Shown one piece after another: positions 49,113 through 50,929 of a stretch of 64,000 bases of DNA. Origin of the DNA: Escherichia coli (GTDB taxonomy: Bacteria > Pseudomonadota > Gammaproteobacteria > Enterobacterales > Enterobacteriaceae); NCBI RefSeq assembly GCF_045037415.1, contig NZ_CP173438.1. One strand, given 5' to 3'. Below the pieces are notes generated by a model. The model was not told where the DNA came from. It searched no databases and worked only from the letters and a program-made list of their open reading frames with translations. A program made the translations under genes and the position numbers. Every line of letters begins with the position of its first letter. Position 1 is the first letter of the stretch.

Positions 49113-50225
49113 TTACCTGTCAGTCATCCGATATTCCACGCTATGTGCTTCATCAGGTTGAGGAACTTCCAGCCTTGAGGCCATCCGCATCACGACCGCT
49201 TCAGGAACTGCATACTCGCGTCTGGCATTTTGCTGGTTCCATTGCGCCCATGGCACTTCCAGATAAACGATTTTTACTCGTGCGCCGTAAGCCGTAAACA
49301 GACTGATGAGCTGGCTGCGCAGCTGGCGGGTAATGTTCGTTGCATTCCAGATGAACGGCTTTTTCTGGCGTAAAAAAACGCGCGCCTCTTCTTTTGCCTG
49401 TTGCACAATACGCCCGGTGGCGGTTTTGTCGTCCGGACTGGCATTGATTCGCCGCCGCATATCATCAAGGCTGATAACGTCCATTCCCTGGCACTGTTCA
49501 CTGATATAGCGATCTTTGCCCATACCCGGTAAGCCACACAGCAAAATAACCTCAAAAGGTTCAGCCTCCCAGGGAACAAAATCAGGAGAACTTTGCTCAT
49601 GAGTCAGGTAGTGCCAGCGTGCGGAATCAGAAACGAACGGGCGCATTTTTCCCCAGCATTGTTGCTCATGGCAAAACAGCTCGAACAGATCGATGCGTTC
49701 CAGCATTGATTGCTGATCCGGGCTTTGGCGACCAAGCAGATCGGCACGAGCAAGCAAAGCGAGCAGACGCGTGTCGATGCGCATTGCAGCCGTGAGCAAC
49801 AAACGCTCCGGTTCCGGACGTTCCAGTAACCATAGCGGTAACCCATGCAGACGCACCAGTGCAACAATTTGCTCGCGCAGCACGAACGGCGTTGGGATAT
49901 CGCGCCATAAAATTTGTCGAGCCGTCAGTTCGCCCCGACGAGCATGACCAGGAGACTGAATACGTCCGTTTTCCTGCACGGTAGTGCTGCGCTTTTCAAC
50001 ATCATGCAATAACGCCGCCGCCCATAAAACTTCCTGCTGTTGAGCGGGGAGTTGCTGGAATTCTGGCAGAGTAATGAGGGCGTTAAGCACCATTTCGGTA
50101 TGTACGCCGACGTCGCCTTCACCATGATGCTCAGGGTCTTGTGGCGTGTGATGCATCTCCTCAACCCAGCTAAAACGCTGACGTAGCGCCGACCAGCGTT
50201 TATCGTCGGTAAGTTGCCAAATCAT
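49113..50225 (-). CDS. HD-Pnk-like bifunctional end-healing enzyme: N-terminal HD phosphoesterase plus C-terminal P-loop polynucleotide kinase-like domain
   Basis: 370 aa; HD signature residues ([27 protein letters not shown]) in N-terminal half; P-loop-like GLPGMGKD and downstream WNATN (reminiscent of the DNTN motif of Pnk-type kinases) in C-terminal half; ATGA start/stop overlap with upstream ligase gene. Confidence 0.75.
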
Positions 50226-50929
50226 GACTGTTCTCCATAAACGAACTCATGGGCCATCCGCGCCCGTTGCCAGTGGCGTTTCCAGTGCACAGTGGTTTTG
50301 ACATGATTTTTGCGCACATACTTGAAGACGTTATGCGAAAAGTCAGCGACAGAAAACGCATCATGATTTCGGCTGACAATGCCTTCCAGCGTACAGGGTT
50401 GACAGGTTTGCGTATCCCAGGGATCGAATGTGCCGCGCGCATTGGTCAGCGCCAGAAAATCACGTTGCCAGCTTTTTTCATCATTCCCCGGCTGCGGGCC
50501 GGAGATTTCGGGAACGCAGGGGAAATCAAACAGAGCGGCGTAAAACTGCACCTCTTCCCAGCTCAGCCACATATCCTGGCAGCGAACGGCAAACAGGTAA
50601 AAGTCCTGTTCCAGCGCGCGGTATTCAATGGAATGAACGGCGTAGAGATTTTCACCAAACAACTCCAGGTTGCCGAGATCGTTTTTCAGCAGTTGCCAGC
50701 GTTGGCGAATTTTATAGGTCCATGCCGACTGCGTAGGCGTGGCATGGGAGCGGGCAAACACGCCGTAGCGGTTAAGGCAGTTATTTTCGCCATCGAGTTT
50801 TTCTGTGTGCACCAATTGCGTGATGGTCTGTAAATCCTGCCAGTAATCGGTGTTAATGCGGTCATCGCTGGTGGTGCCTGGAGAGAAGGGGTAATGCCAG
50901 GTTCTCCCGTATTTACGTTGGGTATTCAT
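50222..50929 (-). CDS. ATP-dependent RNA-ligase-family nucleotidyltransferase (minimal ligase)
   Basis: 235 aa; covalent nucleotidyltransferase motifs in order: I KLDG (about residues 44-47), III LFGEN, IV EGIV, V KYVRK. Confidence 0.75.

Follow-up and report, generated by a model that had tools for sequence, protein, structure and literature searches.

Can a polynucleotide ligase that consists of a nucleotidyltransferase (NTase) core alone be a functional enzyme, and what would it seal? This question is raised by a small gene in a 64,000-nucleotide stretch of the Escherichia coli chromosome (the window; contig NZ_CP173438.1 of assembly GCF_045037415.1, to which all positions refer unless a locus is named), which has the gene order yqaB-yqaA-gshA-(MicA)-luxS ... 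emrB-emrA-emrR. The gene overlaps that of HD-Pnk, a putative phosphoesterase-kinase (Table 1). The original prediction, made from the letters alone, described a minimal 235-residue adenylyltransferase with no recognisable appended domain that may depend on HD-Pnk; the coordinates, length and motif positions were right, and the strand, which had not been given, is minus. We consider it probable that the gene encodes an intact, selected, stand-alone ATP-dependent polynucleotide ligase, most likely an RNA ligase, which has an Rnl2/Rnl5-like NTase and nothing else and serves as the sealing half of a heal-and-seal cassette with HD-Pnk.

The ligase gene is intact and under selection

In a 100%-identical E. 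coli genome RefSeq calls the ligase at the same coordinates as an 'RNA ligase family protein' (WP_001097132.1), followed at the position of HD-Pnk by an 'ATP-binding protein'. The ATG is the earliest start codon after the upstream in-frame stop and M1 aligns with Met1 of orthologues from two phyla (Enterobacterales and Bacteroidota), and therefore the open reading frame (ORF) is no fragment and has its start called correctly. Close relatives are mostly 228-255 amino acids in length, and stand-alone relatives in a representative library are mostly about 205-250 amino acids, matching query residues from about 5 to 225, which indicates that the small size is a trait of the family and not the result of truncation. 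Comparison with E. coli W revealed 23 synonymous and 11 non-synonymous codon differences in the ligase gene, none at an invariant position (see below), and 24 synonymous and 8 non-synonymous differences in that of HD-Pnk; both genes are under purifying selection.

Nothing but the small size would suggest that the start is mis-called or that the ORF is what is left of a larger ligase, as a decaying fragment or a pseudogene, a possibility that the original prediction had also allowed for. This is already refuted by the N-terminus aligned from Met1 and by full-length or near-full-length relatives of mostly 205-255 amino acids in any taxon, and likewise by purifying selection and by the finding of the gene intact in 994 genomes of E. 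coli and, among genomes that represent a species, in at least 578.

Catalytic motifs and conservation

Pfam gives a single match, to RNA_ligase (PF09414) over residues 38-205 (model positions 2-171 of 171; E=1.6e-27), with no other domain in the protein and nothing past residue 205. The ligase also matches two phage families in PHROGs at about 1e-31, and the annotation of one is RNA ligase. A word-indexed search recovered more than 2000 relatives and an exhaustive search 1265 cluster representatives. Identity between the E. coli protein and members from Bacteroidota (Chryseolinea, Chitinophaga, Bacteroides, Cytophagales) is 60-65%, an unusually tight conservation between Enterobacterales and this group.

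Using an alignment of 74 homologues, which reaches down to 27% identity, we found K44, D46, G47, E93, Y103, E182, G183 and K203 to be invariant. Motif I reads K44-L-D-G-E-N, the KxDG form with K44 in the position of the nucleophile; motif III contains E93 (FGEN), motif IIIa contains F113 (FYLFAV), which is at least 90% conserved across the same homologues, motif IV contains E182/G183 (EGIV), and motif V is F-K203-Y-V-R206-K207 (FKYVRK). With motifs I, III, IIIa, IV and V all present the protein is by its sequence a member of the covalent nucleotidyltransferase superfamily. The motif I lysine near residue 44 and motif V at residues 203-207 are thus where they had been predicted, and the concern that motif I or motif IV/V residues might prove unconserved has failed, with K44, E182, G183 and K203 all invariant.

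The core is not bare, as it is flanked by a near-invariant N-terminal peptide (K6, Y7, R9, T10, H12, S16, D22 and D23; signature KYxRTxHxPFSPG..DD) and by a near-invariant C-terminal stretch (V205, R206, H209 and W216) with a conserved basic tail (HVxTxxHW). In profile alignments K44, E93 and F113 fall on K35, E99 and F119 of T4 Rnl2, and the EG(I/F)V of the ligase falls on motif IV of Trl1, while hhalign against an Rnl2 sequence aligned motifs I to IIIa and ended before motif IV of Rnl2. A phmmer search of the PDB returned mollusc hemocyanins only (summed E=3.5e-9; per-domain i-E-values of 0.2 or worse), and these matches were judged spurious.

Structure model and domain content

An initial AlphaFold run with 16 close homologues gave a predicted local distance difference test (pLDDT) score of 76.9 and was replaced by a run with the 74-sequence alignment. 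The resulting model of the ligase alone, a check that had been suggested with the original prediction, contains one domain with an NTase fold and has a pLDDT of 94.5. Neither Pfam nor the model shows an OB fold or a C-terminal domain; the approximately 30 residues after motif V form no regular domain in the model, and the approximately 37 residues that precede the Pfam domain are modelled without an OB fold. Comparison with known folds gave the highest scores for the N-terminal domain of T4 Rnl2 (15.0; 174 residues aligned) and Naegleria Rnl5 (15.0; 177 residues aligned), followed by Rnl3 (13.4), REL1 (13.0), Trl1 (11.3) and Rnl1 (10.3). DNA ligases scored about 10-12 and rank below the RNA ligases in the fold searches, with which Foldseek agrees.

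All six structurally characterised families of ATP-dependent RNA ligase join the NTase to a distinctive flanking domain, and the NTase of every DNA ligase is fused to an OB domain (PMC7261155), in agreement with the earlier remark that known ligases carry extra domains. The E. coli ligase has none of these arrangements: it lacks the all-helical C-terminal domain that follows the NTase in the Rnl2 family (as in T4 Rnl2 and REL1), the N-terminal OB module that precedes it in the Rnl5 family (as in DraRnl and NgrRnl; PMC7261155), the family-specific C-terminal domains of Rnl1, Rnl3, Rnl4 and Rnl6 (PMC7261155), and the C-terminal OB domain of ATP-dependent DNA ligases. As all structurally characterised ligase families have a flanking domain, 'minimal' is a correct label, and the description of an adenylyltransferase core with no appended domain is borne out by Pfam, conservation, the structure model and the fold searches alike.

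The HD-Pnk partner

By its sequence, the partner of the ligase has HD-Pnk architecture. The putative HD motifs are HHGEGD...HT and LLHDVEK (HH..H..HD) and the Walker A motif reads GLPGMGKD; Pfam detects AAA_33 (E=1.6e-31), and NCBIfam matches to the bacterial Pnkp kinase, the HD region of CCA enzymes and HDIG models are all far under their curated cut-offs. Both the HD and the P-loop motifs are kept in the Chryseolinea and Xenorhabdus orthologues. The Walker A motif (residues 230-237) has Asp where Ser or Thr is usual, and since the same motif is found in these two orthologues this belongs to the family and is no defect.

The TGA of the ligase and the ATG of HD-Pnk share an ATGA, which suggests that translation of the two may be coupled. 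HD-Pnk has a Shine-Dalgarno (SD) sequence of its own, as read from the sequence, and the weak SD that had been noted for the ligase is real, comprising just GGA (Table 1). The start context of the ligase, AATAATGGATTAT(C/T)ATG, is kept in five of six Enterobacteriaceae.

Linkage to HD-Pnk and to RtcB across genomes

Scanning one genome per species with the close alignment identified a relative of the ligase in at least 578 genomes, and we examined the neighbourhoods of the best 80 of these loci, which come from Enterobacterales, many Bacteroidota and one Neisseriaceae metagenome-assembled genome. All 80 have a homologue of HD-Pnk (46-98% identity) downstream of the ligase and on its strand, and in 79 it directly abuts the ligase. 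This linkage is obligate for the subfamily at 59% identity or more, to which the count applies; among more distant relatives, one that is 35% identical and lies in a phage-like contig has no HD-Pnk next to it. In other respects the neighbourhoods are unrelated, which indicates that ligase and HD-Pnk travel as a unit. In the one exception to direct abutment, Dysgonomonas sp. PF1-14, a 269-residue ORF with a marginal SprT-like Pfam match (E=0.078) lies between the two genes (L055:5690-6499). The suggestion that the ligase may depend on HD-Pnk therefore has strong support at the level of the genes, with HD-Pnk downstream in 80/80 and the frames overlapping or closely abutting, while physical or catalytic dependence is something we infer.

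Clustering of the flanking ORFs further revealed that 18 of the 80 loci have a co-oriented RtcB-family gene no more than 5 kb from the pair, and 8 of these 18 a PrfH gene as well. These loci (among them L018:3224-4944, L064:2806-4953, L058, L066, L076, L081, L082, L084, L085, L070 and L051) are found in Serratia, Bacteroides, Parabacteroides, Flammeovirgaceae, Chryseolinea and Crocinitomix, with gene orders that include rtcB-prfH-lig-hdpnk, rtcB-lig-hdpnk and lig-hdpnk-rtcB, and with other ORFs in between in a few. The identities of the two Serratia genes were confirmed with NCBIfam (TIGR03073, 581 bits; TIGR03072, 311 bits). RtcB2-PrfH is a proven system for the rescue and repair of ribosomes after cleavage by colicin E3 (PMC9304027, PMC9223846), and together with ligase and HD-Pnk the arrangement looks like an RNA or ribosome repair gene cluster; in the literature searched we found no earlier description of it. 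In the Flammeovirgaceae (L036:2699-4708) and Chryseolinea (L070:5241-7316) loci RtcB is followed by an ORF of 670-690 residues, which has AAA+/FtsH-like similarity in Chryseolinea and no NCBIfam match in Flammeovirgaceae.

These neighbours bear on whether the enzyme might instead be a DNA repair ligase that acts with HD-Pnk on DNA breaks with 3'-phosphate and 5'-OH ends. We hold this to be very unlikely, as RNA ligases are the best matches by both sequence and fold, the neighbouring RtcB and PrfH have RNA and ribosomes as their targets, and the homologous enzyme of Runella slithyformis sealed no DNA substrates (PMC6097658).

More distant relatives of the ligase module stand alone in jumbo phages, in which RNA repair genes are common (PMC7824862), are fused to HNH nucleases, or stand in tandem in 'Swiss army knife' proteins, beside kinase domains and a PTP or 2H phosphoesterase. 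Together with RtcB and PrfH these contexts suggest a role in the healing and sealing of RNA ends, as part of conflict-related repair of RNA. The last group comprises proteins of about 560-2350 residues (P0171, P0172, P0216, P0235 and others) which combine the ligase module with a PTP-SAK phosphatase, a 2H-SAK phosphoesterase and an AAA_33 kinase, and several of them carry a second, divergent RNA_ligase module next to the first. Two candidates for a fusion of ligase and HD-Pnk (591 and 650 residues) were rejected, as in both the ligase is fused to a kinase of a different, GKS/T-type clade.

Proposed function and alternatives

In the heal-and-seal reading that we favour, a ribotoxin-type break in RNA would leave a 2',3'-cyclic-PO4 or 3'-PO4 and a 5'-OH end, of which the HD domain would take off the 2'/3' phosphate and the Pnk domain would phosphorylate the 5'-OH. 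Lys44 of the ligase would react with ATP to form ligase-AMP, AMP would be passed to the 5'-PO4, and attack by the 3'-OH would reseal the strand. The strand-joining step and the RNA substrate are parts of this scheme that we put forward conditionally, as is the idea that HD-Pnk and/or a special RNA structure would replace the missing substrate-binding domain.

Several observations weigh against this reading. The ligase is without the flanking domain used by every structurally characterised ATP-dependent RNA ligase family (PMC7261155), no solved structure is closely related to it, its query TM-score in Foldseek is about 0.5 only, and the best sequence-profile match in the PDB is the Candida Trl1 ligase domain at E=2e-4. 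Neither an NCBIfam model nor a PADLOC model of known anti-phage defence systems matches the ligase (PADLOC places HD-Pnk in no family either), and the Pfam match to the HD domain of HD-Pnk is weak (E=0.017), though the H..HD motifs are present. Furthermore, the Runella ligase, which alone among the homologues has been assayed, forms its AMP adduct and has sealed none of the generic substrates tried so far (PMC6097658), and RtcB seals the same breaks directly, so that its co-occurrence with the pair makes a simple redundant role puzzling.

The Runella result could also mean that the enzyme stops at AMP transfer, for example to make AppRNA or AppDNA as a protective or signalling cap or to AMPylate another molecule, and the lack of a domain to hold the 3'-OH strand would fit such a non-sealing adenylyltransferase. 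We think this unlikely, given that there is no variation in motifs III, IV and V or in the full set of ligase catalytic residues, that HD-Pnk would leave 3'-OH and 5'-PO4 ends, just those required by a ligase, that the fusion contexts are those of healing and sealing, and that the nearest folds are all true ligases. This alternative is thus less likely than sealing of healed ends, which is the best-supported reading, and the same applies to the DNA ligase and pseudogene alternatives.

A further possibility is nested within heal-and-seal, namely that the NTase-only protein is catalytically incomplete alone, like the isolated N-terminal domain of T4 Rnl2, and would seal only with HD-Pnk bound to it and contributing the substrate binding, or only where the target has a particular structure, as in a tRNA loop or rRNA within the ribosome. 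The negative result with Runella and the missing flanking domain suggest that the ligase may need HD-Pnk, a structured substrate, or both. The invariable linkage to HD-Pnk in overlapping frames, the covalent fusion of related ligase modules to kinases and the clustering with RtcB-PrfH ribosome repair genes all favour such a dependence. Conversely, no fusion of ligase and HD-Pnk was seen among the proteins checked, the fusions observed involving the different GKS/T-type kinase, and small RLIG1 ligases are active alone (PMC11494293). We regard the dependence as quite possible. The tRNA stem-loop put forward as a substrate in the original prediction is a guess.

More tentatively still, and with some doubt, the family might make up a seventh class, by architecture, among ATP-dependent RNA ligases, in which an Rnl2/Rnl5-like NTase core with an N-terminal peptide and a basic C-terminal tail would be competent only with HD-Pnk or on a specific damaged target. 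Given the recurrent clustering with RtcB-PrfH, breaks in the rRNA or tRNA of stalled ribosomes are a candidate for that target. If so, about 18% of E. coli strains would gain a second, ATP-dependent route for the repair of ribotoxin damage.

The gene pair is already published and in RefSeq, and the E. coli ligase adds to a known, biochemically orphan kind; our results are therefore an annotation-level confirmation with a sharper hypothesis and not a new system, and the practical consequence is modest. Newly quantified here are the link to HD-Pnk and that to RtcB with or without PrfH, which bear on the substrate and on how an NTase-only ligase works; the proximity of RtcB (with or without PrfH) is a new lead. 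A widespread ligase family with at least 60% identity between Enterobacterales and Bacteroidota and no substrate-holding domain poses a clear mechanistic question, for which E. coli offers a genetically tractable host, with E. coli W among the carriers and K-12 naturally without the cassette.

The cassette locus in E. coli

The positions of the two genes, their signals and the surrounding features are collected in Table 1.

Table 1. Features of the ligase-HD-Pnk cassette and its surroundings in the window.
Feature	Position	Strand	Remarks
Ligase coding sequence (235 amino acids)	50222..50929	minus	ATG start, TGA stop
HD-Pnk coding sequence (370 amino acids)	49113..50225	minus	Predicted N-terminal HD phosphoesterase and C-terminal P-loop polynucleotide kinase
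ATGA overlap	50222..50225	minus	Ligase TGA (50224-50222) over HD-Pnk ATG (50225-50223)
HD-Pnk Shine-Dalgarno, GGAG	50233..50236	minus	7 nt 5' of HD-Pnk ATG
Ligase weak Shine-Dalgarno, GGA only	50935..50937	minus	5 nt 5' of ligase ATG
Untranslated leader/promoter region of the cassette	50930..51157	minus	Partly conserved across Enterobacteriaceae genera
Leader hairpin CTGAGC-N-GCTCAG, then GTTGTT	51067-51050	minus	Conserved
Leader TCCATT (UCCAUU)	51087-51082		Complementary to AAUGGA
emrB intrinsic terminator hairpin, then T-run	51158..51179	minus	Upstream edge of the cassette transcription unit
Convergent terminator hairpin GCCGGGC...GCCCGGC, then TTTT	49081..49111	plus	Between luxS and HD-Pnk stops; downstream edge of the cassette
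Accessory segment, 2118 bp	49068..51185	none	Where E. coli K-12 has a luxS-emrB spacer of 57 bp
MicA small RNA	48407-48478	minus	Rfam RF00078, 83.9 bits
tRNA cluster	44904-45496	plus	Ser(GCU), then four Arg(ACG) genes

Among 5426 complete E. coli genomes 994 carry the cassette, including E. coli W, and it lies between emrB and luxS; it is on no plasmid of the complete E. coli genomes searched. The segment has a G+C content of 52-53%, equal to that of its neighbours and host, and the cassette is also placed between emrB and luxS in Klebsiella spallanzanii, Superficieibacter and an Enterobacter species, in which the ligase is 78-84% and the EmrB and LuxS proteins are 91-94% identical to those of E. 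coli. We considered and rejected a recently acquired island on the grounds of the host-like G+C content, the shared arrangement in other genera and the absence of a plasmid copy. The first two of these suggest that the segment is probably an old resident which has been lost repeatedly and not a recent import. In at least one cassette-less strain, E. coli FEA3 (NZ_CM132924.1), the luxS-emrB spacer holds an IS200C transposase, which indicates that the site tolerates different insertions.

The leader has no Rfam match, and a promoter scan of it gave no convincing sigma-70 consensus. The UCCAUU in the leader is complementary to the AAUGGA that contains the weak SD of the ligase and might therefore sequester it; support for this pairing from RNAalifold was weak, with no covariation seen. 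Further away, MicA lies between gshA and luxS as in K-12, and the tRNA cluster at about 4 kb from the cassette is presumably the normal E. coli serV-argVYZQ locus, with no link to the repair genes.

Comparison with known systems

The closest known system is that of R. slithyformis, in which the ligase ORF overlaps, with its 3' end, the 5' end of that of HD-Pnk, the ligase forms ligase-AMP and seals no standard substrate tried, and HD-Pnk has end-healing activity (Munir et al. 2018, PMC6097658); no later paper characterising an HD-Pnk-linked ligase was found in the literature searched. The E. coli cassette conforms to the definition of Munir and Shuman as far as sequence can tell, with the ligase gene upstream, overlapping ends and a partner predicted to combine an HD phosphoesterase with a P-loop kinase. 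Unlike the Runella pair, that of E. coli is alone between emrB and luxS, without an adjacent Tpt1 or methyltransferase-HIT cassette; orthology of the two is drawn from family and context and not from the Runella sequence.

The Tpt1 neighbour in Runella and the weak Trl1 profile match led us to consider a requirement for a 2'-PO4 like that of Trl1, for which we found no support. The Trl1 arginines proposed for the 2'-PO4 (R334 and R337 in the roughly 400-residue Chaetomium ligase domain) are well beyond the NTase core, in what by our reading is a distinctive C-terminal domain with no counterpart in the E. coli ligase, and the description of HD-Pnk as a 2',3'-phosphoesterase also disfavours the idea.

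Among characterised ligases, the N-terminal domain of T4 Rnl2 (residues 1-249; PDB 1s68) shares PF09414, a similar size and alignable motifs I, III and IIIa with the E. coli protein, although identity is only 14-16%, T4 Rnl2 has an all-helical C-terminal domain that is missing here, and the N-terminal signature and HVxTxxHW tail are distinct from it. The N-terminal domain of Rnl2 alone performs steps 1 and 3 and is not known to carry out nick sealing overall. With Rnl5 of Naegleria gruberi and Deinococcus radiodurans (PDB 5cot) the ligase has the KxDG motif I in common, and K44, D46, E93, E182 and K203 would correspond to K170, D172, E227, E312 and K326 of NgrRnl (PMC7261155) when mapped by motif and not by residue-level alignment. 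However, Rnl5 uses its N-terminal OB module to contact the ATP gamma-phosphate (PMC7261155), whereas the E. coli ligase has about 37 residues in this place and no OB. A small active ligase is not unprecedented, as RLIG1 of Yasminevirus (RLIG1/C12orf29; PDB 9c6l) is an RNA ligase with a 'minimal fold' (PMC11494293).

The logic of the E. coli pair would be that of bacterial Pnkp-Hen1 and of T4 Pnkp-Rnl1, in which the ends are healed by the combined action of a phosphoesterase and a 5' kinase and then joined by an ATP-dependent ligase. The healing phosphoesterase differs, being of the HD type in the E. coli pair and of the HAD or calcineurin type in the Pnkp systems. Activity of the bacterial Pnkp ligase depends on Hen1, and a Hen1 methyltransferase is absent from the E. 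coli pair. Finally, the ligase of E. coli is a separate NTase-only protein and neither Rnl1 nor the Rnl4 domain of Pnkp.

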